64,000 bases of DNA from an uncultured Chloroflexia bacterium (GCA_963778955.1 CAVZWI010000001.1:285582-349581), one strand, 5' to 3'. Shown: positions 16,446 through 40,522, numbered from the stretch's first letter. The notes: generated by a model not told the origin, from the sequence alone. Made by a program: numbers and translations.

Positions 16446-16552
16446 GTCTTCTCATGGGCCGCGACGGCCACAGTGGATCCATGCGAATGACGACGCACCC
16501 TACACTGGACTAAGAGTGCGGCCGATGAGGAGCCCGTGCGCAGGAGGCATGG

Positions 16553-27072: not shown

Positions 27073-28580
27073 CTACAGCCGATGTGAGATGGGCGCGACC
27101 GCCGGATAGACCTCACGATAGAGCTCGAAGAGCCGGGAATAGGCTGCGTGCCGCGCCGGATCGGGTTGGTAGATGTCGGTCAACTCCAGGAAGCGCTCGG
27201 CACCCTCGGCCGCGGACGGCCAGAGCCCGGCGCCCGTGCCCGCCAGCAATGCCGCGCCGAAGGCCGCGGCCTCCGTGATGCGCGGCGTGATGACTGGGAT
27301 GCCGGTGATGTCCGCCTTGAGTCGCAGCCAGAGCGGAGAGCGTGCACCCCCGCCGATGGCGCGCAAGACATCGATGGCCACACCGCCGTCACGGAGCAGG
27401 TCCAGGTTGAGCCGCAACTCGTAGGTGAGCCCCTCCAGGATGGCCTTGGCGATGTCGCCCCGAGTGGTCGAGAACGTCAACCCCAGGATGGCGCCCCGCG
27501 ACGCCGTGTCGAAGGTCGGCGTCCCGGCACCGGCGAAGTGGGGCAGGACCAGCAGACCGGTCGGTTCCGACGAGGCATCGGCGAGGATGACGTCGTATGC
27601 GTCCGCTCCGGAGGCAGACGCCCGAGACAGCTGCGGCTCGCAGAAGCCGTCGCGGAACCAGCGCAGCGCCAGGCCGCCGCTGTGATTGAGCGTCATGGCC
27701 AGGAACGACCCGGGCACGGTCGCACGGTAGACCGAGACGTTGCCCTCGTAGAGCGGCTCGGAGACGACCGGTGCGCCGAGCGCGACCTCCACCACCTCGG
27801 CGGTGCCGGTCGAGACCGAGGCCAAACCCGGGCGGGTAAGGCCGACGCCCAGCGCTCCACAAGCCTGGTCGTGACCACCGCTGACGACGCCGGGTGCCGA
27901 AGCCAGACCCAGTCGGTCGGCCAGGTCGGCCCGCATACGGCCTACCAGCGTGCCGGATGGCGCGACCTCCGCGAGCCGGTCGGGTGAAAGGTCCAGCGCG
28001 TCGAGGTATCTCCGGCGCCCAGCCGCCGGCCTCCAGGTCGTAGAGCTGGGTCCGCGAAGCCAGGCACTCACTGATGACGGCGCGGCCGGTCATGCGCGCG
28101 ATGAGGAAGTCCTCGACCAGCAGGAACCTGTGTGCCGCTGCCCAGACGTCGGGCTCGTGCTCCCTGAGCCAAAGCAGCTTGGGCAGCGTGTTGACGGTGT
28201 GGATGGGCATACCGGTGCGCTCGAACAACCGGCGCGCGCCGAAGCGGTCGCGCAGCCACGCGTTCTGCGCTTCGGTCCGGGTGTCCATGCCCAGGATGGT
28301 CGGCCGCAGCGGTCGCCCCTCGCCATCCACGGGCGTCACCGCCTCGCCGTGGACCGACAGCCCGATGGCGGCGACCTCACGCACCCCGGCCACGGCGATG
28401 GCCTCCGCCATCGACTCCATGGCCAACGCCCACACCTGCTCGATGTCCTGCTCCGCCCACGTCGGCCGCGGGAAGTCCACGGCGTACTCACGAGACGCAC
28501 TCGCGACCAGCACCCCGTCCTCGTCGAAGAGGACAGCCTTGCAGCCGGTGGTGCCGACGTCGAGCCCGATGAGGTTGGCC
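27073..28580 (-). pseudogene. FGGY-family carbohydrate kinase (xylulokinase-like), frameshifted as sequenced
   Basis: The N-terminus (GTG start) reads MANLIGLDVGTTGCKAVLFDEDG and runs to ...YDLEAGGWAPEI. The C-terminus LDALDLSPDRLAEV... lies in the next frame. An extra t near 28025 (gagg[t]atctcc; the true sequence GGATCTCC) explains the split. Confidence 0.8.
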
Positions 28581-28586
28581 ACCGAT

Positions 28587-29714
28587 CTAGGCGTAGCGCA
28601 AGGCGGCCTGGTACATGGCCTCGATGCGCTCGGGTGTGATGTCCGGTTGCAGGTTGTGGGCCGCACAGAACACGTAGCCACCACCGGCGCCCAGGGTGTC
28701 GATGCTGTACTTGACCTCGCGGTCGATCTCCTCTGGCGTGGCTGTGGGCAGCACCTGCTGCACGTCGATACCGCCACCCCAGAAGGCCAACTCGGAGCCG
28801 AACTCCCGCTTCATGACCGCGATGTCCATCTTGGCGGCACTGCGCTGGATGGGGTTGAGCGCATCGACGCCACATTCGATGAGATCGCCGATGATATCGA
28901 AGACCGAGCCGCAGGAGTGCATGAAGACCACCGCGTCGGTCCTGGAGTGGATGAAGTCGTAGAGCTGCCTCAGATACGGCTTGACGTCCTCGCGGAACAT
29001 CTCCGGCTTGATCCAGGTCCCGCGCTGCGTGCCCAGGTCATCGCCCTGCGCGACCACCTGCACATAGGGCTCCACGTGCTGCAGGAAGAGATCCCACAAT
29101 GCGATGTCGGTCTGGGTGATCTTGTCGAGGATGGCGTGGGCCATGTCGCGGTTCCAGTAGAGGTCCATGCAGAACTGCTCGTAGCCGCGCATGAAGCAGG
29201 CGCCCTCGAAGGGACCCAGGCACATGATGTCAGCCACGACCGCGTAGTCGGTCTCCTCGAACAAGCGACGCGCCTCCTCGCGGATGCCGGCCACGCGACC
29301 AGGGTCGTAGGGATCGGGCCACTGCACAGAGTCGAGATCGCTGGCCCGTTCCAGGTCGGCGAAGGGCCGCTTGACCACGTCGTAGTAGAACGACGCCTTC
29401 TCCCAGGTCAGGTCGTACTCGTCGACGAAACGGTCGCCGGGCAGCTCCCGGGTCTCGAACTCCCAGGGGCCCTTGAGGTAGACGGCGCGGGTGTCGACGT
29501 CGTAGCGATGCAACAGGTCTTCGCGCGGATACACCGTGTCCATCTGGCGATGGGAGATGCGCGGCTCGTCATCGGGCGGCAGGCCCAGGTGGACGAGGAG
29601 GTTCTGGTAGGCGATACGGGTGGCCGTGGTGACGATGGTCGAACCCAGGTCGATCGGCACACGGTCGGTCTCCTGGTGGTTCAGCGCAGCCACGACGCGC
29701 TCCCTGTGGTTCAT
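28587..29714 (-). CDS. Uroporphyrinogen decarboxylase (URO-D) family protein, MtaA/CmuA-like
   Basis: A URO-D fold is present. The gene is embedded in a sugar operon between a permease and a kinase. Confidence 0.75.
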   Translation of the reverse strand: MNHRERVVAALNHQETDRVPIDLGSTIVTTATRIAYQNLLVHLGLPPDDEPRISHRQMDTVYPREDLLHRYDVDTRAVYLKGPWEFETRELPGDRFVDEYDLTWEKASFYYDVVKRPFADLERASDLDSVQWPDPYDPGRVAGIREEARRLFEETDYAVVADIMCLGPFEGACFMRGYEQFCMDLYWNRDMAHAILDKITQTDIALWDLFLQHVEPYVQVVAQGDDLGTQRGTWIKPEMFREDVKPYLRQLYDFIHSRTDAVVFMHSCGSVFDIIGDLIECGVDALNPIQRSAAKMDIAVMKREFGSELAFWGGGIDVQQVLPTATPEEIDREVKYSIDTLGAGGGYVFCAAHNLQPDITPERIEAMYQAALRYA

Positions 29715-29780
29715 CTCACTCCCCTCTCTGGCTCCGATCCTCGACCCGCCTGCACCCGACCCGACCCGCCTGCACCGCCG

Positions 29781-30800
29781 CTACGACGGGGCGGGCGCCG
29801 GTTTGGGCCTGGGAGGGTCGGCATCGCCCTTCTCGACGCGGATGTTGCGCCGCTCCAGGCGACCCAGGATGCGCATGCGTTGGGCGTCGATGAAGACGGC
29901 GAAGAAGATCACGGCGGCCGCGATCATGTCCTGCAGGTAGAGGTCGATCTGCAGATAGACCAGGCCGGTCGCGATCATCTGCACCAGCAGCACGCCGATG
30001 ACGGTGCCGGGGAAGACAGCCCCGACACCGCCGAAGAGGCTGGTGCCGCCGAGCACGGCCGCGGCGATGGCGCGGAACTCGACGCCCTCACCGATGCCCG
30101 CCGAGACACTGCCTTGCTGGCTGATGGCGATGACGCCGGCCAGCGAGGCACAGAAGCCGCTGATGACGTAAACCGATCCGGTCAGGCGGACGACGTTGAG
30201 GCCGGCCTTCTTGGCGGCGTCAAGATCGTTGCCCATGGCGTAGATCTGCCGGCCCATGGCGGTGTAGCGCAGGAACACCACGGCCACCGCCACGACGATG
30301 GCGAAGACCACCACCGGGAGCGGTACACCGAAGACGTCGGTAGCCGCATAGGCCATCTCCGGCGGCAGGATGAACTGCCGCAATTCGGTCACCAGCAAGC
30401 CCACCCCTCGGCCCATGGTGAGCGTGGCCAGCGTGGCCACGAATGGGACCAGCCCCACCTTGGCGATGAGGAAGGCGTTGAGGAAGCCCCACGCGGTGCC
30501 CGCCGCGATGCCGGCCAGGATGGCCACGATGTAGTTGACATCCTGCTGCAGCAACATGCCCACGACCGCCGCGGTGATGTACATCGTGGCCCCCACCGAG
30601 AGGTCGATACCGCCGGTCAGGAGGACCGCGGTCATGCCCACCGCGAGCAGGCCCACGAAGGCTGAGGACTCCACGATGTTGGAGAAGTTGTCGATCGAGA
30701 AGAAGCGCTCATCGAGCACGCTGAAGAGCACGAACACGAGCACGAACAGGATCAGCGGCATGTTCCGCAGCAGGGTCATGGTCAGTCGGTTGCTGGTCAT
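29781..30800 (-). CDS. Sugar ABC transporter permease (ribose/xylose type)
   Basis: BPD_transp_2-type polytopic permease. Confidence 0.85.
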   Translation of the reverse strand: MTSNRLTMTLLRNMPLILFVLVFVLFSVLDERFFSIDNFSNIVESSAFVGLLAVGMTAVLLTGGIDLSVGATMYITAAVVGMLLQQDVNYIVAILAGIAAGTAWGFLNAFLIAKVGLVPFVATLATLTMGRGVGLLVTELRQFILPPEMAYAATDVFGVPLPVVVFAIVVAVAVVFLRYTAMGRQIYAMGNDLDAAKKAGLNVVRLTGSVYVISGFCASLAGVIAISQQGSVSAGIGEGVEFRAIAAAVLGGTSLFGGVGAVFPGTVIGVLLVQMIATGLVYLQIDLYLQDMIAAAVIFFAVFIDAQRMRILGRLERRNIRVEKGDADPPRPKPAPAPS

Positions 30801-32308
30801 GTCGCGTGCTCCCGAAAGGCCGTGCGGATGATGGACTCCTGGTCGAATCCCGCTCGGTCGAAGGCGCCGAGCACCTCACCCTGGCCCATGACGATGATGC
30901 GATCGCACATGCCGGTGAGCTCCTCGATCTCCGAGGAGATGAAGAGGACCGCGGTGCCCCTCGCAGCGATCTGGTCGATGATCTCGTAGATCTCGTACTT
31001 GGCGCCCACGTCCACGCCGCGGGTGGGCTCGTCGATGATGAGGATCGACGGCTCGGTCATGAGCCACTTACCCAGCACGACCTTCTGCTGGTTGCCGCCG
31101 GACAGGCCCTTGACCTCGTTCTTGAACGCGTCGTTGACCTTGATGCTCAGGATGTCCACGGTTTCCTTCACAGCGGTCGCCAGGCCGCTGTTCTTGACCC
31201 GCTTGACGACACGCGAGGTGTAGTCGGGCAGCGCCGCGATAGCTAGGTTGTCGGCGACGGTGGCCTCCATCATCAAGCCTTCCTCGCGACGGTTCTCGGT
31301 CACGAAGGCCATGCCGCCCCTGATGTTGCTGGTCGGCGACAGCTTCTCGGCGACGACCCCGTCGATGAGCACCTCACCCTCATCGAAGTCCTCGAGGCCG
31401 AAGATGATCTGGGCCAGTTCCGAACGACCCGAGCCCATCAGGCCGAACACGCCCAGGATCTCGCCCCTATGGAGCTGCAGGTCGATGTGGTGGCTGATGC
31501 CGGCCTTGGAGAGGTTGCGCACCTCGAGCATGAGGTCCTTGGTCGGAGCCGCCGTCCGATCAGGGTAGAGACTCTCGATGTCGCGACCGACCATCGAGCT
31601 GATCATGCGGTCGATGGTGAACTCGTCGCGCGAGCCCTGGGCTACCAGAGCCCCGTCACGAAGCACGGCGATGGCGTCCGACAGGCGCATCACGTCACCG
31701 AGGATGTGGCTGATGTAGAGGATGGTCTTGCCGTCCTCGTGGAGCCGCCCGATGAGGTCGAAGAGGCGGTCGGTCTCACGCGCGGTGAGCGATGTCGTGG
31801 GCTCGTCGAAGATGATGATGCTCGCGTCCACCGACAGCGCCTTGGCGACTTCCACGAGCTGCCGCTCGCCGGGAGCCAAGCGCTCGACGCGCATGTCGGG
31901 CGAGACATGTAGGTCGACCATGGCCAGGTACTCTCGAGCGCGGTCGTTGAGCTCACGCCGGTTCAACAACGGAGCGCGGCCCAGGGTCGGGAAATCACTG
32001 ATGAAGAAGTTCTCGGCGATGCTCAGGTTGGTGAAGAGGTTCAGCTCCTGGTGGATGAAGGCGATGCCGGCCTCATCCGCGTGTTTCGGGTCACCCGGCT
32101 CGAAGGCTTTCCCGTTGAGCAGCATTTGGCCTGCCGTGGCCGGCACCACGCCGCCGAGGATGTTCATGAGCGTGGACTTTCCGGCACCGTTCTCGCCGAC
32201 CAGGCCCACGGTCGTGCCGCGTTCCACGTCAAGGTCGATGCCCTTGAGCACCGGCACACCGAAGAAGGACTTGTCGATGCCCTGGAACTGCAGGATCAGG
32301 TCACTCAT
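30797..32308 (-). CDS. Sugar ABC transporter ATP-binding protein (duplicated ATPase domains)
   Basis: Two sets of Walker A, signature and Walker B motifs are present (GENGAGKST...; LSGGNQQKVVLGKWL...IIDEPTRGVD). Confidence 0.9.
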   Translation of the reverse strand: MSDLILQFQGIDKSFFGVPVLKGIDLDVERGTTVGLVGENGAGKSTLMNILGGVVPATAGQMLLNGKAFEPGDPKHADEAGIAFIHQELNLFTNLSIAENFFISDFPTLGRAPLLNRRELNDRAREYLAMVDLHVSPDMRVERLAPGERQLVEVAKALSVDASIIIFDEPTTSLTARETDRLFDLIGRLHEDGKTILYISHILGDVMRLSDAIAVLRDGALVAQGSRDEFTIDRMISSMVGRDIESLYPDRTAAPTKDLMLEVRNLSKAGISHHIDLQLHRGEILGVFGLMGSGRSELAQIIFGLEDFDEGEVLIDGVVAEKLSPTSNIRGGMAFVTENRREEGLMMEATVADNLAIAALPDYTSRVVKRVKNSGLATAVKETVDILSIKVNDAFKNEVKGLSGGNQQKVVLGKWLMTEPSILIIDEPTRGVDVGAKYEIYEIIDQIAARGTAVLFISSEIEELTGMCDRIIVMGQGEVLGAFDRAGFDQESIIRTAFREHAT

Positions 32309-32317
32309 GGTCGTACC

Positions 32318-33385
32318 TCAGACCTGCTGCAGCGCCAGGCGGCGGCGGACGACATCGAGCAGAGCGGCGAAGAGGATGACCGAACCCTTGACGATGGCGA
32401 TGTAGAAGTAGGGCACGTTGAGCAATGAGAGCGCATTGCCCAGCAGGACCAGGAAGATGACGCCAAAGACCGTCCAGATGATCTTGCCGCGGCCACCGGC
32501 CAGGCTGGTGCCGCCGATGACCACCGCCGCGATGATGTCGAGCAGGAGCGGCTCGCCCAGCGTGGGGCGGCCCTGCTGGACCCGCGACGTATAGATGATC
32601 GACGCGGCCGCGGCACAGACGCTGCTGAAGATGTAGGTAGCGACGATGACCTTCTTCACAGGCACGCCAGAGACCACGGCGGCACGGGGATTGTTGCCGA
32701 TGCCGTATAGCCAGCGCCCGAAGATGCTGCGACCCAGGATGAGGTGGGCCACGACGGCCACGCCGATGGCGATGACCATGGCGATGGAGAAGATGCCGAA
32801 GTCGTCGCCGATGAGGGCGAAAGCGTCAGGCAGATCGATGATGTTCTCGCTCTTGACCACGTAGATGGCCAAGGCAGCCACGAACATCGAGGTCACCAGG
32901 GTGACCATGAAGGGCGGGATGCGCGCGAATGCGACGGCCACGCCGTTGAAGGCACCGATGACAAGGCCGACGGCCAGCATGGCGACGATGGCCACCGGGA
33001 TACCCAGGACCGAGTCATGGAGGATGGCACCGTCCTGGAACAGGAAGATGTCCCACAAGGGGCTCTTGCGGAAGACGATGGGATTGGCCGACTGGGCGAT
33101 GAACGCCGCTCCGACCACGCTGGCGAGCGAGACGACTGCGCCCTGGCTGAGGTCGATGCCGGCGATGATGAGCACGAACGTCTGCCCGATGGCGATCACC
33201 AGCAGCGGCCACATGTTCGAGAGCAGGTTGGTGATGTTGTACGGCGTCGCCACCGTGGGCGACACGAGATAGAGCCCTGCGAACATGGCGATGCACAGGT
33301 ACAGGATCAGATACTCGGACATCAGGATGCGCTTGCCGAAGCTGAGCACGCGATCGGTCGCCGAAGGCTGCACGAGGGCCGTCAT
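32318..33385 (-). CDS. Sugar ABC transporter permease (second permease)
   Basis: BPD_transp_2-type permease. Confidence 0.85.
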   Translation of the reverse strand: MTALVQPSATDRVLSFGKRILMSEYLILYLCIAMFAGLYLVSPTVATPYNITNLLSNMWPLLVIAIGQTFVLIIAGIDLSQGAVVSLASVVGAAFIAQSANPIVFRKSPLWDIFLFQDGAILHDSVLGIPVAIVAMLAVGLVIGAFNGVAVAFARIPPFMVTLVTSMFVAALAIYVVKSENIIDLPDAFALIGDDFGIFSIAMVIAIGVAVVAHLILGRSIFGRWLYGIGNNPRAAVVSGVPVKKVIVATYIFSSVCAAAASIIYTSRVQQGRPTLGEPLLLDIIAAVVIGGTSLAGGRGKIIWTVFGVIFLVLLGNALSLLNVPYFYIAIVKGSVILFAALLDVVRRRLALQQV

Positions 33386-33521
33386 CTGGCTCGCTGCCTA
33401 TGTTGTGTCGGGTGCGGCAGGGTCATCACTTCTCGCCTGGATGGGGTAGATGCGCGGGCCCCGACGTGCGAGGCCCGCGTTACCTGGGGGCGGATCAGCT
33501 CCGCCCCCGTTCAGGTACTGC

Positions 33522-34586
33522 CTATGGGTTGTAGGACGGGTCGGCCAGCAGGATGCAGCCCCACATGTCCATCTCACGCTCAGCAAGGTTGCCGGCGGTG
33601 AGAGCGAACCCGGGGTCGTCGATCCACTGGTCGGGGTGGGTGTCGCCTTTGGCGACGGCGGCGAGCAGCGCATCCAGCATCGCCTGAGCCTCGTAGTAGA
33701 GGTTCTGGACGCCGGTGGCGTCGACGTAACCGTCCTTGATCTGCCGGCAGGCGTTGACGTCGCCGTCAAGACCGGCCATCAGCACGTGATTGGGATCATC
33801 ACGGGTGACCCACTTGCCGAGCGGCTCAAGGACGCCCTTGATGGTCGGGAAGAGGAAGTCGGAGGACGTGAACAGGAAGTCCACGTCGGGGTTGGCGGCC
33901 ATGGCCGCCTGCAGGTTGGCCTGCCCGGTCGCGGCGTCCCAGTTGGTGGGGACCTCGATGGGATCGGTCAACCAGAGGTCGGGGTTGGCGTTGATGACGT
34001 CGTAGAAGCCCTCATAGCGGCCGATGGCGTTGGGATCGCCCAGGTCGCCGACCATGATGAGCGGAGTCACCTTCTTGCCGGCCGCGATGGCCTGGTCGGC
34101 GATGTACTGGACGGCGTCACGCGCGATGGTGCGGTTGTCGGCCTGCACCACGATGGCGGCGCCATCCTCGCTCTGCGGCGGGCGGTTGAAGATGCCGATG
34201 GGGATGTTGGCGTTGTTGGCTTCTTCGATCAGCGTCAGGGCGATGGAGCCGTCCTTGGGGATGACGAAGATGGCGTCGACGCCCTGTGCGATGCAGTCGC
34301 GTTCCAACTGCAGCTGCCCATTGGCATCGGGGCTATAGCGCTCGAGGACGTTGTCGCCCTGCGCGGCCAGCGTCTCGGTCATGGCCTTGTGGCCGGCCAG
34401 CCAGAACTCGGTCTCGAGATCTTCGTGGATGAAGCAGATGTTCAGGCCTCCGGCCGCGGCCATGGACTCGGCCGGAGCGGCACTTTCGTCCTGTGCCAGG
34501 GCCGGGGTCGCGGACAGCGCCAACGCGCCGACCATGGTGAGCCCGATGACTCCCTTGAGATTCCGCATGAGTTTGGTCTCCTCCAA
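33522..34586 (-). CDS. Sugar ABC transporter substrate-binding protein (periplasmic binding protein type I)
   Basis: A signal peptide and a RbsB-like PBP fold are present. The start could instead be the internal Met near 34568. Confidence 0.85.
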   Translation of the reverse strand: MEETKLMRNLKGVIGLTMVGALALSATPALAQDESAAPAESMAAAGGLNICFIHEDLETEFWLAGHKAMTETLAAQGDNVLERYSPDANGQLQLERDCIAQGVDAIFVIPKDGSIALTLIEEANNANIPIGIFNRPPQSEDGAAIVVQADNRTIARDAVQYIADQAIAAGKKVTPLIMVGDLGDPNAIGRYEGFYDVINANPDLWLTDPIEVPTNWDAATGQANLQAAMAANPDVDFLFTSSDFLFPTIKGVLEPLGKWVTRDDPNHVLMAGLDGDVNACRQIKDGYVDATGVQNLYYEAQAMLDALLAAVAKGDTHPDQWIDDPGFALTAGNLAEREMDMWGCILLADPSYNP

Positions 34587-34648
34587 GATCTGTTCCCTTG
34601 ATGGATTTCTGAGGTTCCCTATCGGTCTGCTAGCACCTCCTATGTTGG

Positions 34649-36061
34649 TCAGGCATGTCGGAAGACCTCCCAGTCGAGGTAGTTCTCGAGCGCTTCGGCC
34701 ACGGCGTCCGCGGTGTGCGCGGGACTCATGGCGCAGTGGTGCTCGAAGCCGACCTTGCAGATGAGCTTCAGGAGCGGCTGGAAGTTGGGGATCTCGACCA
34801 CTGCACTGGAGCCGAAGGTGTCCAGCGGGTCGTCGAGGAACTGCCCCTCAGCCACGTAGGCCTTGCACCTGCCGTTGACGTCGTCAGTGCTGATGCGGGC
34901 GATGGTCAGCGGCGCCGCCGGCGCGCGGCCAGTGATGGCACCGTAGACGTTGTCATTGCCCAGCGTAGTGCCAAGCACGTCGGCGATGCGCATCTCGGCC
35001 TCTCCCTCGGGGTAGAAGTTCAGGGGCCAGTTGCCGCAATGGAAGAGCACGCACTTGTCAGGGTGGTCGCCGTAGTTGTTGTTGAGGTCGACGATGGCCG
35101 CCGGCTGCTCGGCGGCCAGCTGCAGCGCGTACATCGAGGCCAAGCCGGTGATGTCGGTCTCACAGGCGCTGGGCATGAGCTTGTTGCTCATGATGCTCAT
35201 GAGCGTGCAGACGTTGACCCCGTAGTTCTCCTGGAGTGAGCTCCAGCACTGCATGGCGGTGGCATCAAGGTCGTTGGCGGCCATCCAGTCGTCGACCACG
35301 ACGCCCAGCTTGGCCATCTTCACCAGCTTCTCCGGCGGCACCGTCGGATGCGGCATGTGAGCCCGGATCTCGTCGAGCTTGGCCTTGGTCTTGGCGTCGT
35401 CATCGCCCAAGCGGTTGGCGTTGCCGAAGACCTCGCTGAAGTCGATGACGCTGACCGCGATGCCGGAGGCTTCGAGCAGCTTCTCGCTGTAGCGCACGGT
35501 CTTGAAGGCATCGGGTCGCGTGCCGATGGCGCCAAGTCGGGCATGCTTCATGCCGTTGGCGACCTTGCACACGCGCACGAACTTGTCGAGGTCCGCACGG
35601 AAGGCATCCGATTGCACCGGGACCGTGTGACGCTCGGTCAGCGAGTAGCTGAACCCGTATTGACGGAGGTCGCTACAGACGGAGATCTTGCCGCAGAACG
35701 AGTCGCGACGACGGTCGAGAGTGAAGGCGGTGACGTCATCCGGGTAGGCCTGGATGAGGATGGGCACATCCAGGCCGGAGAGCCGCATCGTGTCCGCGAC
35801 GCCCTTCTCGTCGCCGAAGTTGGGCAGAACCACCAGCACACCCTCGATGCGCTTGCGGTTCTCATCGAACAGCTGAGCACACAACTGTGCCTCACGCCAG
35901 GTCTCCACACCGCCGAGCTTGGTGGCGCCAGCGTCGAGGATGACGGGCTCGATGTCCATCTCCTCGAACAGCGCCAGCACGTCCGCACGTGCTTCGGTCA
36001 CCAGTGCGTCGGGGAAGAAATCGCGGTTCCCGACGATGACTCCCAATGTGGCTCGTGCCAT
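34649..36061 (-). CDS. L-fucose/L-arabinose isomerase family protein
   Basis: A FucI-like fold is present (...VLFHCGNWP...; C-terminal domain). Confidence 0.7.
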   Translation of the reverse strand: MARATLGVIVGNRDFFPDALVTEARADVLALFEEMDIEPVILDAGATKLGGVETWREAQLCAQLFDENRKRIEGVLVVLPNFGDEKGVADTMRLSGLDVPILIQAYPDDVTAFTLDRRRDSFCGKISVCSDLRQYGFSYSLTERHTVPVQSDAFRADLDKFVRVCKVANGMKHARLGAIGTRPDAFKTVRYSEKLLEASGIAVSVIDFSEVFGNANRLGDDDAKTKAKLDEIRAHMPHPTVPPEKLVKMAKLGVVVDDWMAANDLDATAMQCWSSLQENYGVNVCTLMSIMSNKLMPSACETDITGLASMYALQLAAEQPAAIVDLNNNYGDHPDKCVLFHCGNWPLNFYPEGEAEMRIADVLGTTLGNDNVYGAITGRAPAAPLTIARISTDDVNGRCKAYVAEGQFLDDPLDTFGSSAVVEIPNFQPLLKLICKVGFEHHCAMSPAHTADAVAEALENYLDWEVFRHA

Positions 36062-36094
36062 GTCCTCTCCTCCTTGGATCGCTCTTGGTCCGGC

Positions 36095-37441
36095 TTAGTC
36101 GGTGGCTAGCTGGTCGACAGCCTCGAGCAGCTCGGCAGCAGCGATCGCGCCCTGCGACCACTGGTCCTGCAGCTGTCGCAGCCGGTAGACGGTGGATGGC
36201 TTGATCTCGACGTCCTGAGTGGTGATGGGGGCGTCGATCGCTACGGGTCGGACGACCCTGGCGCCGTTGGCAAGGCCGATGGGCAGGAGTCCCTCGGTAG
36301 CAGCGGTCTGGAACGTATCGATGAGGCTGTAGTAAGCCGTGCCGCCGATGGCGTCGAGCGTGTCGCCGGCTGTGAGGTCGCGCTTGGCGACCGCAAAGAC
36401 CTCCGAGGTCAGCCGATCGAGCGGCACCATGTTGGAGACCTTGCGGATGGCCAGCATGGCGCAGGTCAGCGGCACCTCGATGCTGCACAGGTGGAAGGGC
36501 CGGAAGAGGGTGTAGTAGGGCCCGTCGCCCATGTCGCGCAGCACCATCGCTTCGCGCAGCCGCGGATGGTCCGTGCGGACGATGACGAAGACGCCCGGGG
36601 CCACCGCGCCGATGCCGTAGTCGACCACGCCCAGCTGGCTGAGCACGCCACCATCCTCGATGAGCCTGAAGGCGTCGGTCAGATGGTCGCGATCGGTGTC
36701 GGGACCGTGCATGCCGCGGACGTCCGGCACCAGACCGGTGGCGTTGGAGGTGGCGGCCATCTCGATCATCGTCTTGGAGCCGTCCACGAACTCGACCAGC
36801 ATGTTGGGCGAGAGGCCGCGGCGGGCCGCTTCCTTCTGCACCGCCGGGTCGGCCGGGGTGGAGTGGCGGTCGAGCGGGTTGTTCTTGCCCTTGCCGGCAG
36901 CCACGATGGTGAAGCCCATCGACACCGCGAGGTCGTAGAGCTCCTTGCAGGCGGCTGGCTCGTCACCGGCGGCGAGCGCGTAGAGCACACCCTTCTGCTG
37001 TGCGTACCAGTGCAGGATGGGGCCCACGGTGATGTCGGTCTCGACGTTCATCATGGCTAGGTCCTGGCCGTTGCGAGCGCTGCGAAGCGCGGCCCGAGCG
37101 CCGATCTCAGGCACGCCTGTGGATTCCAGCATGACGTCGACCGAATGCATGTCGGTGACGATGCGATAGTCGGCCGCGGCCACTCGCTTGCCAGCCGCCA
37201 CGGCAGCGTCGGCCTCGGCGGCTGACACCGCCACGACGACCTCGTCCTCGATGAGGCCGATGCGGTAGGCATCGCGAGCGCGTTCGAGGTCCAGGTCGGC
37301 GGTGACGACCACGCGCACGCCCTGCATCTCGTGCGTGGTGGCGACGACGTCGGTGCCCATCTGCCCGGCGCCGATGAGGCCGATGCGCACGGCCTGCCCA
37401 GAGGCTTCCCGCTGCTGCAACTCGGTATTCAGTCCGATCAT
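36095..37441 (-). CDS. NAD(P)-dependent oxidoreductase with a C-terminal SAF domain (COG4091-like)
   Basis: A Rossmann N-terminus (RIGLIGAGQMGTDVV) is followed by a SAF-like C-terminus. The gene is paralogous to 41054..42340. Confidence 0.7.
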   Translation of the reverse strand: MIGLNTELQQREASGQAVRIGLIGAGQMGTDVVATTHEMQGVRVVVTADLDLERARDAYRIGLIEDEVVVAVSAAEADAAVAAGKRVAAADYRIVTDMHSVDVMLESTGVPEIGARAALRSARNGQDLAMMNVETDITVGPILHWYAQQKGVLYALAAGDEPAACKELYDLAVSMGFTIVAAGKGKNNPLDRHSTPADPAVQKEAARRGLSPNMLVEFVDGSKTMIEMAATSNATGLVPDVRGMHGPDTDRDHLTDAFRLIEDGGVLSQLGVVDYGIGAVAPGVFVIVRTDHPRLREAMVLRDMGDGPYYTLFRPFHLCSIEVPLTCAMLAIRKVSNMVPLDRLTSEVFAVAKRDLTAGDTLDAIGGTAYYSLIDTFQTAATEGLLPIGLANGARVVRPVAIDAPITTQDVEIKPSTVYRLRQLQDQWSQGAIAAAELLEAVDQLATD

Positions 37442-38499
37442 GCCGGGTCCGTGCCTTCCTGGCCGATCTCGACCATGACCTTGAGCGCCTCGCCTGCGGC
37501 GACGGTCCGAAAGACCTCGTCGGCCTGGTCGAGGGCGTAGCGGTGGGTGATGATCGCGTCGGGGTCGACCTGGCCGCGTTCCAGCAGCTGCAGCGCGCGC
37601 GCGTGGAAGTCGGGGTGATAGCTGAACGAGCCGATGACGCGGATCTCGTCGTAGTGGATGCGGTTGGCGTCCAGGTTCGTCATGGGGGCCGCCTTGGGCA
37701 GGCCGCCGAAGAGCACCACGTTCCCGCGCTTGCGCACCGCGTCGACCGCCTGCTGGTGGGTAGCAGCCACGGGGTTGGCGCAGATGGCGCTGTCGGCACC
37801 CAGGCCGTCGGTGAAGGCTTTGACCACGGCGACGACATCCTGGCTCATGGGGTCCAGCACCAGCTCTGGCGCGAACGGTTCGGCCAGCGTGCGCCGCAGC
37901 TCGTTGGGCTCGGACAGGATGACGCGGGCGCCGCGCAGGTGGGCGATGAGCGTATGTAGGCAGCCGATGGGACCGGCGCCCATGACAAGGACCGTGTCAC
38001 CGAGCGTGGTGCCGATGTCCTCGTGACAGGCCTGCACCGAGCTGAGCGGCTCAGCCAGGGCGCCCTGCGCGAACGTGAGCGACGATGGCATCTTGTGGAT
38101 GGTGCCGCCGGCCAACGCGTGGGCCGGCAAGACGCAGTACTCGGCCAGCCCGCCATCGAAGCCGGGCGTGATGCCGATCATCGTCATGTCGTCGCAGAGG
38201 TTGTAGAGGCCCACGCTGCAGTACCAACACTTGAGGCAGTGGACGTCCGGCGCGACCGCCAGGTGCTCGCCGACCTGGTACCCGCTGACGTCGGAGCCGA
38301 CCTCGACGATCTCGCCGGCGAACTCGTGGCCGGGCACGGTGATGGCACCGGCAGCCGGACCCTCGCGCCAACGCCGCAGGTCGGAGCCGCAGACCCCACA
38401 GGCCCTGACGGCGAGGAGGACGCCGTCGTTGGGGCACTGCGGGACGGGAACATCGACCAGTTCGATGGTCTCGGGGGCGGTGAGGTGAGCGGCTTTCAC
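37438..38499 (-). CDS. Zinc-dependent alcohol/polyol dehydrogenase (MDR family)
   Basis: GVCGSDL...GHEFAGEIVEVG... and GxGxxG (VLVMGAGPIG) are present. Confidence 0.85.
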   Translation of the reverse strand: MKAAHLTAPETIELVDVPVPQCPNDGVLLAVRACGVCGSDLRRWREGPAAGAITVPGHEFAGEIVEVGSDVSGYQVGEHLAVAPDVHCLKCWYCSVGLYNLCDDMTMIGITPGFDGGLAEYCVLPAHALAGGTIHKMPSSLTFAQGALAEPLSSVQACHEDIGTTLGDTVLVMGAGPIGCLHTLIAHLRGARVILSEPNELRRTLAEPFAPELVLDPMSQDVVAVVKAFTDGLGADSAICANPVAATHQQAVDAVRKRGNVVLFGGLPKAAPMTNLDANRIHYDEIRVIGSFSYHPDFHARALQLLERGQVDPDAIITHRYALDQADEVFRTVAAGEALKVMVEIGQEGTDPA

Positions 38500-39105
38500 T
38501 GGCTGTCGATCTCTCTGATCTTGTGACCGACCGCACCACCGGGGTGGGTCTCCCCGAAGGCCTCGACCGAGTAGCCGCGAAGCTCGAGGAGCGCCACACA
38601 GAGGGCATCGGTGAAGGCCGAGTTGAAGAGCGAGCTGCCCGTGGCCACCATGCCGAAGGGGTCGACCCCGTCCGGCGCGGTCACCTGCAGGACCAGGTCG
38701 GCCAGCCGGCCCAGACTAGAGTCAGGCTTCTCGGTGATGGCGACGACGGCCGCGCCGCGCTTGCGGGCGACCCCGGCCAGGAACACGACCTCAGTCGTCT
38801 CGCCACCCTTGGACAGGCCGACCCAGACGTCGTTGGCGGTCACCGCACCGGCAGCGCCATGCTGGCTGTCGCCGGGGTGGAGGAAGAGCGCGGGAGTGCC
38901 CACGCACGAGAGCAGATGGGCGAACCGCAGTGCCACCGCGTGGGAGGTACCGGAACCTGACACGAGGACGTGGCCGCGGCAGTCCAGCAGCATGCGAACG
39001 GCCTGGGCGAAGGTGTCCGGCAGGTCGTCGGCCAGCGTCGCGGCGGCAGCGCTCTCACGGCGGACGGTCTCGGCGCCGAGCGCGCGGATCTTGCTGGTCA
39101 GCCAT
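38496..39105 (-). pseudogene. SIS-domain sugar-phosphate isomerase-like protein. The start region is disturbed, with a putative 1-bp indel, and the start is uncertain.
   Basis: The SIS core is LLDCRGHVLVSGSGTSHAVALRFAHLLSCVGTPALFLHPGDSQHG. The conserved N-terminus (IRALGAETVRRESAAAATLADDLPDTF) has no in-frame ATG. An ATG (MADQQ) lies in the +1 frame next to an aa[g]atcc context near 39088. Confidence 0.55.
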
Positions 39106-39115
39106 CGTTCGCTGC

Positions 39116-40126
39116 TCAGCCATCGTTCGACTCCAAGAGCGTCTCCGCGGTCACCGAGTCGGTGACAAGCACGTTGATGAGACGGCCACGCAGGGCGGCA
39201 CGGATGGCGGCTTGCTTGTCCGGGCCGCCCGACACGCCTACGATCTTGGGCACCTGCTTGATCTGCTCCAGCGTCATGCCGATGATGCGGTCGTTGATCT
39301 CGGACTCGATGCATTCGCCGTCGACGTCGTAGTAGCGCAGGGCGATGTCGCCGACCGCTCCCTTGCGCAGCAGCGCATCCAACTCGGCGCGCGTGATGAT
39401 GGAGCCGTCGCGCATGGTCACCGAGCCCAGCGTCGGTGCGCCGATGCCGACGAACGCGATGTCCAGATCATCGAACGCCTCCACGGCGCGCTGGACGTGG
39501 ACGTCGGAGAGCAGCACCTCGCGGGTCCGTTGATCGGGCACGATTCCCGGTACCGGCAGCAGCGTCAGGCGGCAGCCCAGCGAACGCGAGACGCTCCGGC
39601 ACAGTTCGGTGGCATGGACTTCCGAGTCTGGCTGACCCAGGCCACCGATGACCTGCACGACCTGGGCGTTGGGGTAGCGCTGCGGGGTCAGCGCTGCCGC
39701 CATGTGGCGCAGCGTGTCACCCCAGCACATGCCGATGGTGCTGCGAGGGGACATGGCGCGCAGCAGGTAGCCCGCGGCGGCGCTGCCGACAGCGCGGCTG
39801 ACCTGCGCCTGCGAGTCCCCCGGCTGCGCTTCGACCACGAGCGCCTCCTGGAGCCCGTAGCGCTCCTCAAGCCCGCTCTCGAGGTCGAGGAAGAGGTCCT
39901 CCGGCGCCACCACGTTGATCTGCACCACACCCGTCTCGCGCGCCTGCGCCATGAGCCGGGAGACCTTCGAACGAGACAGCCCCAGGCGCGCCGTGATGGC
40001 GTCCTGGTTCAGGCCGTCCTCGTAGTAGAACCTGCTGACTTTGACCAGCAAGCGAAGCTCCTCGTTCGATGGGTGGCTGGCTACCGCCATGAAAGAATTC
40101 CCACTCCTGAGAATTATTTCAGGCAC
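39116..40126 (-). CDS. SorC/DeoR-family sugar-binding transcriptional regulator
   Basis: An N-terminal HTH (DAITARLGLSRSKVSRLMAQARETGVV) is followed by a C-terminal sugar-binding domain. The true start is probably MAVASHPSNEE near 40090. Confidence 0.8.
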   Translation of the reverse strand: MPEIILRSGNSFMAVASHPSNEELRLLVKVSRFYYEDGLNQDAITARLGLSRSKVSRLMAQARETGVVQINVVAPEDLFLDLESGLEERYGLQEALVVEAQPGDSQAQVSRAVGSAAAGYLLRAMSPRSTIGMCWGDTLRHMAAALTPQRYPNAQVVQVIGGLGQPDSEVHATELCRSVSRSLGCRLTLLPVPGIVPDQRTREVLLSDVHVQRAVEAFDDLDIAFVGIGAPTLGSVTMRDGSIITRAELDALLRKGAVGDIALRYYDVDGECIESEINDRIIGMTLEQIKQVPKIVGVSGGPDKQAAIRAALRGRLINVLVTDSVTAETLLESNDG

Positions 40127-40213
40127 CGTAGCATGGTCGATGGGCGTGCGTCAACCGGATCCGCATTCGAATGCACGAGACGGCTGCACAGCTGGTCCGC
40201 CTATCGGGCGGCT

Positions 40214-40477
40214 CTACCCACCCTGCGGGTGATCCGACGGTCGCTCGCCGTCCATCCAGACCTCGCGGGCGACTCCTACCCGCCTGGCGGGTGAATCAGC
40301 GTCGATCCGACGCAAACCGCAGGCTCGCTCCGTCGGTTCACCCGCCCCGTGGGTCAAGTGACCGGTATCTGGCTATCCCAGATGACCTGCTCCGTCGGTT
40401 CACCCGCCCCGTGGGTCAAGTGACCGGATCTGGCTATCCCAGATGACCTGCTCCGTCGGTTCACCCGCCCCGTGGGT
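40214..40477. repeat. Palindrome-rich intergenic repeat array. Two ACCC..GGGT palindromes are followed by 2.4 tandem copies of a 62-bp unit that carries three palindromes per unit.
   Basis: The two leading palindromes are CACCCtgcGGGTG at about 40218 and ACCCGCCtGGCGGGT at about 40277. The 62-bp units start at 40328, 40390 and 40451; each unit contains ACCCgccccgtGGGT, GGTCAagTGACC and ATCTGGctatcCCAGAT. Confidence 0.6.
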
Positions 40478-40522
40478 AGAGCACGCGTGGCGGGCGTGGC
40501 GGGCATGACGATGACTGCGGAT

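Follow-up and report, generated by a model that had tools for sequence, protein, structure and literature searches.

The locus described here raises a simple question: which compound does it serve, and by what route is that compound broken down? It lies within a 64,000-nucleotide stretch of DNA (the window) and is a conserved, real sugar-uptake and breakdown locus of 17 minus-strand genes, running from 43911 to 23539. All the families named in the initial annotation were recovered by Pfam searches on the minus strand and in the order claimed, and the tight packing, the association with a SorC regulator and the assignment to carbohydrate uptake and catabolism were also supported. The run was, however, placed within 27073–40126, a span that covers just 11 of its 14 named genes: the low end is the 3′ end of an FGGY kinase gene, while three genes lie beyond it, down to 23539: those for the PfkB kinase, the second Zn-ADH and the mannitol-DH-like protein. 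Three upstream genes on the same strand, encoding FGGY2, DRL2 and a VOC/Glyoxalase_4 protein, had been overlooked. The reported 4-nt overlaps are found in four gene pairs (SIS/ZnADH1, ZnADH1/DRL1, ATPase/permease 2 and PfkB/ZnADH2), and the remaining intergenic gaps are mostly 4–66 nt, with a single gap of 136 nt. The mannitol-DH-like gene closes the unit, the next gene (22879–23481) being on the plus strand.

The host is a Limnocylindria-like Chloroflexota MAG. Its nearest genomes are Chloroflexota MAGs from long-read projects, which makes the earlier comparison with Actinobacteria the wrong frame. An identical 14-gene order, with an intact FGGY gene, is present in Chloroflexota relatives, and the FGGY2-DRL2-VOC module directly adjoins SorC in the nearest of them (L099, L100 and L102). 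The SorC-SIS-ZnADH-DRL-isomerase-(transporter)-FGGY core occurs in five more annotated loci, whose DRL is 73–81% identical; DRL1 shows the same 73–81% identity in Anaerolineae-type clusters. The core, including the AraA/FucI-like isomerase and the xylulokinase-like kinase, recurs across many uncultured genomes. Because the order is kept in relatives, the arrangement is not due to chance, and the gene families, their order, conservation and co-occurrence form the established part of this account.

The two genes that had been flagged as odd, the URO-D-like and the SAF-domain gene, turned out to be the informative ones. Judged by its sequence, the “SAF-domain dehydrogenase” is a DXR-II/DRL-type NAD(P) oxidoreductase/reductoisomerase, and the locus encodes two such paralogues, DRL1 (36095–37441; PF21135, 209 bits, plus SAF) and DRL2 (41054–42340; PF21135 DRL_cat, 202 bits). 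DRL1 matches the Brucella DXR-II structure 3UPL (E 1e-109) and DRL2 the Brucella DRL structure 3UPY (E 5e-90), while no NCBIfam model matched either protein. The substrate-binding and signature residues K191, K193, T229, H250 and R320, whose roles are taken from PMC3847144, are retained in both, and DRL2 also keeps G121 and N194; several of these positions, T229 notably, are missing from DLO-like homologues. Since the residues of a true DXP reductoisomerase are retained, DXP/MEP could be the true substrates of DRL1 and DRL2. In 53 metagenome loci DRL2 is accompanied by FGGY2-like, Zn-ADH and VOC genes.

The genes around DRL1 encode a regulator, a transporter and sugar-converting enzymes. The SorC/DeoR-type sugar-binding transcription regulator (39116–40126; PF04198, 237 bits) matches the DeoR and LsrR equivalogs below cut-off. 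The SIS-domain sugar-phosphate isomerase (38496–39123; PF01380) is devoid of CBS domains and resembles KpsF/GutQ and 6-phospho-3-hexuloisomerase, with scores of 135 bits for KdsD, 122 for GutQ and 48 for HxlB, all under cut-off. ZnADH1 (37438–38499; ADH_N, ADH_zinc_N) is a medium-chain Zn-dependent polyol or polyol-phosphate dehydrogenase, for which the threonine DH, IolM and galactitol-1-P DH matches each fall below cut-off. The aldose-ketose isomerase (34649–36061; Fucose_iso_C, 96 bits) gave no match in a sequence search of the PDB; the AF2 model predicts an AraA/FucI fold, with L-arabinose isomerases best (TM 0.72–0.74, E 2e-20) and L-fucose isomerases next.

The transporter is of the CUT2 (ribose) type. 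It comprises a substrate-binding protein (33522–34586; Peripla_BP_4), permease 1 (32318–33385; BPD_transp_2, with Ribose/GguB-type matches below cut-off), an ATPase with tandem nucleotide-binding domains (30797–32308; two ABC_tran domains, AraG, XylG and RbsA-like matches) and permease 2 (29781–30800; BPD_transp_2). The PDB relatives of the binding protein are distant, 4RY0 and 5IBQ being the best at 52 bits. Xylulokinase is the nearest NCBIfam relative of both FGGY kinases: the joined proteins score 344 bits (FGGY1, 27073–28582, frame-broken) and 287 bits (FGGY2, 42362–43911, FGGY_N and FGGY_C in two frames) on TIGR01312 XylB, where the cut-off is 380.

Evidence on the substrate comes from the related loci. 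The proposed comparison of gene neighbourhoods across genomes shows the core recurring and reveals genes for GH140, DUF4432 and ribulose-phosphate 3-epimerase in related loci, the window itself having none of the three. GH140 apiosidase-like genes (PF13204, 274–399 bits) lie at most 10 kb from a DRL gene in six loci, against a roughly estimated chance expectation of well under one, and in L178 and L144 they are within the operon. The GH140 gene of L178 flanks that of a binding protein 67% identical to the one described here, and the L178 FGGY kinase shows 71–75% identity to FGGY here. The slot beside the transporter that is occupied here by the URO-D-like gene is filled in relatives by a gene that encodes either a GH140 apiosidase-like protein or a member of the ADP-ribosyl-glycohydrolase family. 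At the operon end, L179 and L180 carry mutarotase-like DUF4432 and ribulose-phosphate 3-epimerase genes, which indicates that a free aldose enters and a pentulose 5-phosphate leaves. GH140/DUF4038 is a large family with a single characterised specificity, so that it suggests apiose and does not prove it. For an unbranched pentose an isomerase, a kinase and an epimerase would suffice, and the extra conserved ZnADH, DRL and SIS would thus be accounted for by a branched skeleton. Instead of the simple polyol proposed initially, the related loci point to a branched aldopentose of the D-apiose type, with a pentulose 5-phosphate as its end product.

The reading that we tentatively favour, giving it slightly less than an even chance, is that the locus imports a C5 sugar with a branched skeleton, D-apiose or one of its conjugates being the likeliest, and converts it to a pentulose 5-phosphate by an undescribed route with a DXR-II-type key step. 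The sugar would enter through the CUT2 transporter (33522–34586 and 29781–33385), the AraA/FucI-fold isomerase would turn apiose, an aldose, into the ketose apulose, and ZnADH1 would reduce the keto group to yield apiitol. The xylulokinase-like FGGY1 would then phosphorylate the primary hydroxyl adjoining the secondary carbinol, to give apiitol 1-phosphate, the hydroxymethyl analogue of methylerythritol 4-phosphate. DRL1 would run the DXR reaction oxidatively, converting a branch hydroxymethyl to an aldehyde and, through a 1,2-shift (retro-aldol/aldol), forming a linear pentulose 5-phosphate, which is DXP's hydroxy analogue. The KpsF/PHI-like SIS isomerase would finally shift the carbonyl, and the resulting ribulose or xylulose 5-phosphate would enter the pentose-phosphate pathway.

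ZnADH1 and DRL1, with their overlapping genes, would form a redox-balanced pair. The DXR equilibrium lies toward the reduced, branched product, so that the oxidative direction requires a downstream pull. FGGY2, DRL2 and the VOC protein would handle, in parallel, a stereoisomer or some other branched compound of related structure; a single substrate leaves the paired DRL modules unexplained. NAD-dependent migration of a hydroxymethyl group has a precedent in apiose catabolism, in ApnO (PMC12994016).

The same DXR-II signature would also suit catabolism of methylerythritol, a reading that we consider unlikely. Here 2-C-methyl-D-erythritol or a 2-methyltetrol would be imported, phosphorylated by an FGGY or PfkB kinase to MEP and converted by DRL to DXP, which would be cleaved elsewhere, for instance by a TPP-dependent E1/E2/E3 complex to acetyl-CoA and glyceraldehyde 3-phosphate. 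In all five alphaproteobacterial plasmid loci the DRL is 73–74% identical to the proven Brucella DXR-II and lies directly upstream of acetoin-dehydrogenase-like E1a/E1b/E2 genes; three of these loci carry a Gut-type PTS and one an ABC transporter with a PfkB kinase. The sorbitol PTS of Salmonella is reported as a methylerythritol carrier (Testa et al. 2004, as cited in PMC3994034), and functional DXR-II can be present in bacteria without the MEP pathway (PMC3847144). The fit is, however, better to the alphaproteobacterial clusters than to this locus. The E1/E2 genes are absent from the window, a polyol substrate leaves the conserved AraA/FucI-fold isomerase and mutarotase-like DUF4432 unaccounted for, and a DXP product does the same for ribulose-phosphate 3-epimerase; the GH140 genes are unexplained as well. 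Isomerisation of 2-C-methyl-erythrose to a 2-ketose is moreover chemically impossible, which counts against this substrate.

An unbranched rare pentose or pentitol is distinctly unlikely. The aldose would be isomerised, reduced to a pentitol and phosphorylated, DRL serving only as a polyol-phosphate 1-dehydrogenase that gives arabinose 5-phosphate, from which the KpsF-like SIS would make ribulose 5-phosphate. This would agree with the SIS protein having its closest characterised relatives in the arabinose-5-phosphate isomerases KdsD and GutQ, and with the ribulose-phosphate 3-epimerase of related loci. In Listeria and Ligilactobacillus DRL adjoins Gut-type PTS genes, and the set, which in Ligilactobacillus also includes Tkt and Fsa, has no other evident dehydrogenase; in classical gut operons a polyol-phosphate dehydrogenase holds that place. 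Such a route is longer than needed, however, as the ketopentose could pass straight from the isomerase to a kinase; it explains neither the recruitment of a rearranging enzyme family nor the GH140 genes, and every equivalog score is far under cut-off.

The URO-D-superfamily protein (28587–29714; PF01208, 106 bits; MtaA/CmuA matches below cut-off) is of the MtaA type and is not a haem UroD. It carries the zinc H-x-C motif: H266-x-C268 aligns with the LHICG zinc motif of MtaA, H266, C268, H353 and N354 are invariant, and the best fold-search match is MtaA 4AY7. It is a putative Zn-dependent methyl or thiol transferase. Genes for its homologues adjoin those of B12-binding proteins in 12 of 79 loci, and in L069 the two are fused. 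The initial guess of a deoxy or methyl sugar thereby keeps some support in its “methyl sugar” part. On the apiose route this protein probably serves to release the sugar from a methylated derivative, which is the most speculative assignment.

The same zinc motif and corrinoid-linked homologues would also serve salvage of a deoxy or methylthio C5 compound (5-deoxyribose, 5-methylthioribose or the autoinducer DPD) through DXP to MEP, which we hold to be quite improbable. The MtaA-like protein would strip the methyl(thio) group and DRL, with its retained DXR-II signature, would be biosynthetic, in analogy with the Rhodospirillum MTA-isoprenoid shunt or lsr-type processing. E. coli XylB phosphorylates 1-deoxyxylulose, and autoinducer-2 kinase is the second-best match for FGGY1 and the third for FGGY2; the SorC regulator matches LsrR and the transporter is of the CUT2 type, as LsrACDB. 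The Lsr equivalogs are nevertheless all well under cut-off, LsrF and LsrG are absent from the locus, and the PDB matches of the binding protein include no LsrB-named entry. URO-D is outside the core (one of 53 DRL2-type loci and none in L178–L181), the epimerase and GH140 genes are left without explanation, and cofactor salvage would hardly be expected to call for a high-capacity importer and three extra dehydrogenases.

The VOC/Glyoxalase_4 protein (40523–41044; PF13669, 66 bits) is methylmalonyl-CoA-epimerase-like, scores 44 bits on TIGR03081, below cut-off, and is a candidate epimerase or isomerase; homologues 60–84% identical occur in 29 of the 53 DRL2-type loci. The PfkB-family sugar kinase (26116–27051; PF00294, 138 bits; ribokinase and tagatose-kinase matches below cut-off) is limited to the closest relatives. 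ZnADH2 (24845–26119), a divergent 424-aa Zn-ADH with weak ADH_N and ADH_zinc_N matches, also has its counterparts (79–88% identical) in close relatives only. With the mannitol-1-phosphate 5-DH-like protein of the mannitol-DH family (23539–24840; Mannitol_dh_C, 52 bits; mannitol-1-P DH equivalogs far under cut-off) they form a lineage-specific add-on module. The roles given to SIS, VOC, URO-D-like, PfkB, ZnADH2 and mannitol-DH-like proteins are guesses.

Three genes are frame-broken in the assembly, and the locus may for this reason be non-functional in this organism. FGGY1 has one extra A near 28007, FGGY2 a 1-nt deletion near 43300, and the 5′ end of SIS an extra A near 39092, as judged from a DNA alignment with L001. 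If these frameshifts were real, both kinases and SIS would be pseudogenes and the gene order would reflect history in a decaying locus or one that is not a single functional unit, which is highly improbable. Three of the four breaks in the window do fall in this locus, but with about 32% of the window covered the chance probability is near 0.1 by our own calculation, and the fourth lies in an unrelated GH94 gene, as random consensus errors would give. The genes are intact in the nearest relatives (FGGY1 in L001, 502 aa; FGGY2 in L099 and L100, 85–88% identical), all 14 remaining genes have their full length and a strong third-position GC bias, and each break is of one base, with no further degradation. 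The breaks are probably long-read assembly errors. The presumed promoter region upstream of SorC (40127–40522) has a genome-specific 61–62-nt tandem array, which might speak for decay (40327–40477; TRF period 61, 2.5 copies, 98% match); ACCCRCNRGGYGGGT is present there in five spaced copies in 40216–40477, against 0.02 expected, and in 0 of 181 related loci.

A divergent form of a pathway already characterised, whether for erythritol/threitol, for xylitol/arabitol or for apiose (four published routes), is hardly credible: the SorC-type regulator, CUT2 transporter, Zn-ADHs, kinases and isomerases are common to tetritol pathways, but the 17 genes include no GlpD-like EryB, RpiB- or TIM-type erythrulose-phosphate isomerase, RuBisCO-like protein, transketolase or DUF1537 kinase, and to our knowledge DRL and the AraA/FucI-like isomerase, the most conserved partners, have no part in any of them. 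The locus is not an enlarged version of an erythritol or threitol locus. The initial view that it matches no textbook pathway holds, as all NCBIfam equivalog matches fall under their curated cut-offs and no description of its gene set was found in the literature searched. Pfam search gave no aldolase family in it, as was noted initially. The locus is centred on two copies of DXR-II, which is elsewhere known solely as an enzyme of isoprenoid synthesis, and it hints at a reason for the presence of DXR-II in bacteria that have no MEP pathway.

The sugar uptake and breakdown locus lies on the minus strand and comprises 17 genes between 43911 and 23539. Fourteen of these form an unbroken run, assigned by Pfam to a SorC regulator (39116-40126), a SIS protein (38496-39123), a zinc alcohol dehydrogenase, ZnADH1 (37438-38499), an oxidoreductase with DRL_cat and SAF domains, DRL1 (36095-37441), a Fucose_iso_C protein (34649-36061), a Peripla_BP_4 binding protein (33522-34586), permease 1 (32318-33385), a tandem ATPase (30797-32308), permease 2 (29781-30800), a URO-D protein (28587-29714), the kinase FGGY1 (27073-28582), a PfkB protein (26116-27051), a divergent 424-aa zinc alcohol dehydrogenase, ZnADH2 (24845-26119), and a mannitol-dehydrogenase-family protein (23539-24840). 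The window has a G+C content of ~68%, and real genes were recognised by their high third-position G+C. Four junctions of the 14-gene run overlap by 4 nt and the remaining gaps measure 4-136 nt; the next gene downstream of the locus (22879-23481) is on the opposite strand. Upstream of SorC, across a 396-nt gap, are a VOC/Glyoxalase_4 gene (40523-41044), a second DRL gene, DRL2 (41054-42340), and FGGY2 (42362-43911), all on the minus strand. In the metagenomic loci nearest to the window (L099, L100 and L102), these three genes adjoin SorC-SIS-ZnADH1(-DRL1) directly, and the functional locus is therefore taken to be all 17 genes. The genes farther upstream, encoding a Bcr/CflA efflux MFS protein, a GT2 protein and a CoA-disulfide-reductase-like protein, appear unrelated.

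The initial annotation named the gene families, their order and their strand correctly, but its operon was drawn too short: the span of 27073-40126 holds just 11 of the 14 genes it listed, and the upstream FGGY2-DRL2-VOC module was overlooked. Three genes of the locus are also frame-broken. Compared with its 87%-identical counterpart in the related locus L001, FGGY1 has an additional A near 28007; FGGY2 lacks one base near 43300, and an extra A near 39092 removes the conserved ATG start of the SIS gene, which in L001 too overlaps with the stop of SorC. The fourth single-base break of the 64 kb is a frame switch near 17650 (17610-17700) in an unrelated GH94 gene of the cellobiose-phosphorylase type (16529-19025, plus strand). 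The genes are intact in relatives and the nearest genomes stem from long-read MAG projects; consensus errors are the most likely cause of the breaks, and decay of the locus by real inactivation is the lesser possibility. A GH94 gene is also found near the cluster in the related locus L003. At the junction of the SorC stop and the SIS start there is a direct duplication of 18 nt, CGAACGATGGCTGA(G/C)CAG (39100-39135, minus strand), which copies the ATGGCTGA start-stop overlap. An 863-aa open frame antisense to the URO-D and permease genes (28074-30665, plus strand) has a low-complexity, high-G+C translation, lacks the third-position G+C bias and is spurious; a comparable antisense call of 866 aa is annotated in L003.

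The intergenic region 40127-40522 contains a tandem array of 61-62-nt units (40216-40477), 2.5 of them near-identical and two diverged. Within the array ACCCRCNRGGYGGGT occurs in five regularly spaced copies and nowhere else in the window (0.02 expected). The motif is missing from all 181 related loci, where the matching intergenic region is only ~66-108 nt long, which rules out the array as a conserved SorC operator. A cobalamin or other riboswitch was likewise discarded, as the window has no Rfam match, and promoter and terminator scans gave nothing informative.

DRL1 and DRL2 share with the Brucella abortus DXR-II (PDB codes 3UPL and 3UPY) an N-terminal NAD(P)-binding Rossmann domain, the DRL catalytic domain and a C-terminal SAF domain. 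They score 209 and 202 bits on PF21135, respectively, both match SAF, and neither matches any NCBIfam model. Full-length alignment to the Brucella structure gives an E-value of 1e-109 and 44% identity for DRL1, and 5e-90 and 39% for DRL2. Both proteins keep K191, K193 and T229, which anchor fosmidomycin or substrate, as well as G121, T229, H250 and R320, which discriminate DXR-II from the DLO1 and DLO2 clades (PMC3847144); the DLO-like homologues of Natronococcus and Chelatococcus have P or S at position 229, plus other changes. Unlike the Brucella enzyme, the DRL proteins of the window are two paralogues placed inside a sugar uptake and catabolism locus and not in an isoprenoid context. The 64-kb window contains no MEP-pathway gene and the neighbours are all sugar genes. 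The partners of DRL, namely the isomerase, Zn-ADH, xylulokinase-like kinase and SIS protein, joined in relatives by GH140 and a ribulose-phosphate epimerase, point to a hydroxylated C5 analogue as substrate and to the oxidative direction.

The distribution of DXR-II has been a puzzle. The enzyme is scattered, often redundant with DXR-I, and functional in bacteria that have no MEP pathway, such as Chloroflexus aurantiacus and Finegoldia, as noted by Carretero-Paulet et al. 2013 (PMC3847144), whose study did not extend to gene neighbourhoods, and a 2026 review still finds no pattern that explains it (PMC13001223). Sugar or polyol uptake genes adjoin DRL in Chloroflexota, Alphaproteobacteria, Listeria and Ligilactobacillus, so that a catabolic use of the DXR-II family would offer a simple explanation.

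The Fucose_iso_C protein (96 bits on its Pfam domain) retains invariant acidic and His residues. Its predicted structure (pLDDT 76) matches L-arabinose isomerases best in Foldseek (TM 0.72-0.74, E 2e-20), followed by FucI (E 1e-12), and the model has the three-domain fold with a C-terminal catalytic domain that is typical of the AraA/FucI superfamily. It is, however, only ~12% identical to the solved structures, has no sequence-level match in the PDB, and its sole NCBIfam match is to sulfoquinovose isomerase (79 bits; cut-off 700). Both FGGY kinases are nearest to xylulokinase; TIGR01312 gives them 344 and 287 bits, below its cut-off of 380. The SIS protein is closest to arabinose-5-phosphate isomerases and more weakly related to 6-phospho-3-hexuloisomerase. 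The best PDB relatives of the binding protein, 4RY0 and 5IBQ, are distant (~52 bits), which ruled out deducing the ligand from solved binding proteins; 5IBQ is reportedly an apiose complex.

When an alignment of the URO-D-like protein was scanned against one genome per species, the best loci (79-92% identity) came solely from MAGs labelled uncultured Chloroflexia, Candidatus Limnocylindrales or Chloroflexota. An actinobacterial origin is thereby ruled out, and the actinobacterial systems with which the operon had been compared are the wrong frame. Relatives keep the gene order, and the core recurs in related loci. A tblastn search of the related loci with the proteins of the window found the complete 14-gene order only in loci whose URO-D protein reaches 87% identity or more. 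Two further loci with a URO-D protein of 79-81% identity, L015 and L016, have no PfkB, ZnADH2 or mannitol-DH-like gene, which restricts this trio to the closest relatives. All carriers of the 14-gene order, as well as L015 and L016, belong to Chloroflexota.

Two conserved modules exist, each with its own kinase, DRL and Zn-ADH. A set anchored on DRL2 comprised 80 metagenome contigs, and among its 53 loci of at least 6 kb a Zn-ADH is present in 44, an FGGY2-like kinase in ~34, a VOC protein in 29, an AraA/FucI-like isomerase and SorC in 20 each, an AP_endonuc_2 TIM-barrel protein in 15, and URO-D in just one. Some of these loci have a CUT2 transporter, with a binding protein 55-60% identical to that of the window. 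Searches anchored on DRL1-type proteins or the isomerase homologue found the order SorC-SIS-ZnADH-DRL-isomerase-(transporter)-FGGY in five more contigs, with a DRL 73-81% identical. Both modules occur together in some genomes, including the window and the related locus L138. Among the 120 matches listed for DRL1, the homologues are 76-100% identical and nearly all exactly 448 aa long, several of them from Anaerolineae-labelled MAGs, a pattern that would fit strong constraint, a recent horizontal spread within Chloroflexota, or a combination of the two. Where the cluster is of the Anaerolineae type, a 550-aa Cpn60/TCP1-family protein, often with a BNR/sortilin-like protein, is encoded directly after CUT1 ABC transporter genes (L005-L008, L019, L021, L152, L160 and L161), an association of a chaperonin-like ATPase with sugar loci.

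The related loci suggest a branched aldopentose as substrate. In L178, which is otherwise collinear with the window (74% identity for DRL, 67% for the binding protein and 71-75% for the kinase), a GH140 “apiosidase-like” gene (PF13204 and PF12904) is inserted between the binding protein and the permease. Further GH140-like genes (274-399 bits) are located no more than 10 kb from DRL in L128, L144, where the gene is inside the operon, L157, L109 and L154. GH140, a glycosidase family whose only characterised activity is D-apiose release, is thus present in six of ~60 DRL neighbourhoods, against a rough chance expectation below one; for a rare family this is, on a rough estimate, far above chance. 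The window itself has no GH140 gene. A mutarotase-like DUF4432 gene and a ribulose-phosphate 3-epimerase close the cluster in L179 and L180, DUF4432 is followed by PfkB in L181, and an ADP-ribosyl-glycohydrolase-family gene adjoins a CUT1 transporter in L179 and L181. The mutarotase-like gene and the AraA/FucI fold of the isomerase indicate that the pathway starts from a free aldose, and the epimerase, together with the xylulokinase-like kinase and the SIS protein, points to a pentulose 5-phosphate as its product. For an ordinary pentose, an isomerase, a kinase and an epimerase would be enough, so that the always-present additional Zn-ADH and DXR-type enzyme fit a branched skeleton. Apiitol 1-phosphate is the hydroxymethyl analogue of methylerythritol 4-phosphate.

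Together these features lead to a proposed route for D-apiose. The isomerase would convert apiose to apulose, ZnADH1 would reduce apulose to apiitol, and an FGGY kinase would phosphorylate apiitol to apiitol 1-phosphate. DRL, using NAD(P)+, would then run the DXR reaction in reverse and linearise apiitol 1-phosphate to a pentulose 5-phosphate, either xylulose or ribulose 5-phosphate, or to a 3-ketopentose phosphate that SIS could isomerise. SIS, aided by the epimerase in relatives, would pass the pentulose 5-phosphate to the pentose-phosphate pathway. The ZnADH1 reduction and the DRL oxidation, encoded by overlapping genes, would cancel in redox terms. We give this specific mechanism, which is built on protein families, gene context and chemistry, slightly less than an even chance of being correct.

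The URO-D protein is the weakest part of the proposed apiose route. It matches PF01208 with 106 bits and UroD structures with TM 0.61-0.66, but not the HemE model; its only NCBIfam matches are to the MtaA/MtbA/CmuA families and its context is a sugar operon, so a haem enzyme is ruled out. The best match of its predicted structure (pLDDT 80) is MtaA (PDB code 4AY7), and the MtaA/MtbA/MtsA methylcobamide:thiol methyltransferases are its nearest relatives in both sequence and fold. The invariant H266-x-C268 of the protein lines up with LHICG, the zinc-binding motif of MtaA. At the position that we assume for the third zinc ligand, from an MtaA site of the form H-x-C ... C, there is no conserved Cys, and the invariant residue is His353. 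It differs from these methyltransferases in being only ~17% identical to them, in scoring far below the family cut-offs (59.5 against 244 bits on PRK06252 and 58.4 against 235 on TIGR01463), and in residing in sugar loci and not in loci of methanogenesis or acetogenesis. A B12-binding gene adjoins the URO-D homologue in 12 of 79 genome loci, with SorC-SIS-UROD-B12-FGGY clusters in L004 and L021 (URO-D 62-63% identical to that of the window); no such corrinoid gene is found in the window or its nearest relatives. In L069 (10001-11953), URO-D, B12-binding_2 and B12-binding domains are fused in one 650-aa frame, within a CUT2 sugar-transporter locus, alongside DUF4380 and creatininase-family genes. 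The slot of the URO-D gene beside the transporter is held in relatives by a GH140 or an ADP-ribosyl-glycohydrolase-family gene, which suggests that the URO-D/MtaA-like protein releases the sugar from a conjugate taken up by the cell, such as a methylated form. 2-O-methyl sugars are among the constituents of rhamnogalacturonan-II too. Directly upstream of SorC-SIS-ZnADH-DRL-isomerase-FGGY, L177 (4602-5615) encodes a member of a second, separate URO-D subfamily, 337 aa long and ~30% identical to the protein of the window, so that genes of the URO-D superfamily were recruited to the cluster more than once.

Among other routes through the same enzymes, an unbranched pentitol pathway is possible, in which DRL would act as a polyol-phosphate 1-dehydrogenase and supply the KpsF-like SIS enzyme with arabinose 5-phosphate. 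DRL homologues adjoin Gut-type PTS genes in Listeria monocytogenes (L011) and Ligilactobacillus salivarius (L091), and no other dehydrogenase is evident there; the classical gut operons have a polyol-phosphate dehydrogenase at this place. In the Ligilactobacillus locus a fructose-6-phosphate aldolase and a transketolase come after DRL. Lactobacilli use the mevalonate pathway, and an isoprenoid role for this DRL is therefore unlikely. Against the pentitol pathway in the window stands its length, which would be needless.

The DXR-II signature of DRL1 and DRL2 is also what catabolism of methylerythritol, through MEP to DXP, would call for, and this reading is retained for the alphaproteobacterial clusters. 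In all five alphaproteobacterial plasmid loci (L009, L010, L094, L095 and L096), DRL is followed by acetoin-dehydrogenase-like TPP-dependent E1a/E1b and E2 genes, and DXP carries an acetoin-like CH3-CO-CHOH unit. These loci have a SorC regulator and, in addition, either a Gut-type PTS or an ABC transporter with PfkB, two of the five have LpdA, and their DRLs are 73-74% identical to the proven Brucella DXR-II (measured in L009 and L010). The sorbitol PTS of Salmonella is reported to carry methylerythritol (Testa et al. 2004, cited in PMC3994034). The alphaproteobacterial loci look like a candidate operon for conversion of methylerythritol via MEP and DXP to acetyl-CoA and glyceraldehyde 3-phosphate. 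For the locus of the window the same reading fits poorly: it has no E1/E2 genes, and the aldose isomerase fold, the ribulose-phosphate epimerase, DUF4432 and GH140 would be left without explanation. The 644-aa flavoprotein at 46155-48089 is CoA-disulfide-reductase-like and not a lipoamide dehydrogenase, which removes it as an E3/PDH-like partner, and the E1 genes beside the related locus L139 appear to belong to an ordinary pyruvate dehydrogenase.

A salvage route that feeds deoxy or methylthio C5 compounds, such as 5-deoxyribose and methylthioribose, or autoinducer-2 into DXP is chemically attractive. The lsr autoinducer-2 operon (LsrR, LsrK, LsrACDB, LsrFG) resembles the locus in its SorC-family regulator, its FGGY kinase and its CUT2 transporter, which has two permeases and a tandem ATPase, and phospho-DPD is a 3-oxo analogue of DXP. 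However, URO-D lies outside the conserved core, and all Lsr equivalogs score below their cut-offs: LsrR 160 of 486, LsrK 232 and 182 of 528, LsrA 387 of 586 and LsrC 171 of 388. Judged by its PDB matches, the binding protein is not LsrB-like, and no LsrF or LsrG domain is found among the locus genes; salvage and an lsr-like system are both set aside as unlikely.

A divergent form of an already known pathway is the weakest reading, since no gene reaches an equivalog cut-off and the hallmark enzymes are missing. Erythritol and threitol operons are defined by an EryB-type FAD dehydrogenase and by tetrulose-phosphate isomerases of the EryC/TpiA2/RpiB or DerI/LerI type, and Pfam finds none of these in the 17 genes. 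The erythritol, D-threitol and L-threitol pathways (Brucella ery; Mycobacterium smegmatis, Huang et al. 2015) do share with the locus a SorC/DeoR-type regulator, a CUT2 ABC transporter, Zn polyol dehydrogenases, kinases and isomerases in one operon, as well as parallel enzyme sets, there for stereoisomers. They have no counterpart of the DRL, AraA/FucI-like and URO-D-like proteins, and the end product of the locus is probably C5 rather than erythrose 4-phosphate.

The presumed substrate and the layout, with an ABC binding protein beside catabolic genes, are common to the locus and to published apiose pathways. Four D-apiose catabolic pathways were reportedly described by Carter et al. 2018 (Nat Chem Biol 14:696), and their hallmarks are said to be an apionate oxidoisomerase with a DUF1537-type kinase (3-oxo-isoapionate kinase) and a RuBisCO-like decarboxylase/transcarboxylase, or else an apulose-4-phosphate transketolase. 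According to Pfam, no RuBisCO-large, transketolase or DUF1537 domain is present in the 17 genes. Part of this list of hallmarks follows PMC11747546 and PMC12994016. Both the published pathways and the proposed route need an NAD-dependent move of a hydroxymethyl group, which the D-apionate oxidoisomerase ApnO performs on apionate (PMC12994016); here the rearrangement would take place on a polyol phosphate and be carried out by a DXR-II-type enzyme. Literature searches turned up neither a description of this gene set nor any account of methylerythritol catabolism or a catabolic DXR-II. The view of the initial annotation that the pathway is undescribed is thus upheld, although the organism belongs to Chloroflexota and the substrate proposed here is more specific than its polyol or methyl sugar.

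We rate the locus as a sugar catabolic operon built on an enzyme family not known in catabolism. More tentatively, and at clearly less than even odds, the DXR-II family may be catabolic by origin or main use, rearranging branched C5 polyol phosphate skeletons, which would be apiitol phosphate here and methylerythritol phosphate in the alphaproteobacterial and Listeria operons. The sugar D-apiose is widespread in plant cell walls and occurs in rhamnogalacturonan-II, in apiogalacturonan and in many apiosides. If the proposal is correct, the window encodes a fifth and mechanistically new D-apiose pathway, and the DXR-type linearisation of apiose would be new enzymology and would give a function to a cluster widely found in uncultured bacteria of soil, sediment and fresh water. 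The corrinoid-linked URO-D-like proteins of sugar loci hint at an unexplored route of sugar demethylation, and their large URO-D/MtaA-like family would be sugar demethylases. As DXR is the target of fosmidomycin, the native substrates of DXR-II matter for inhibitor design, and the presence of a functional “DXR-II” in bacteria without the MEP pathway would be explained by sugar catabolism.
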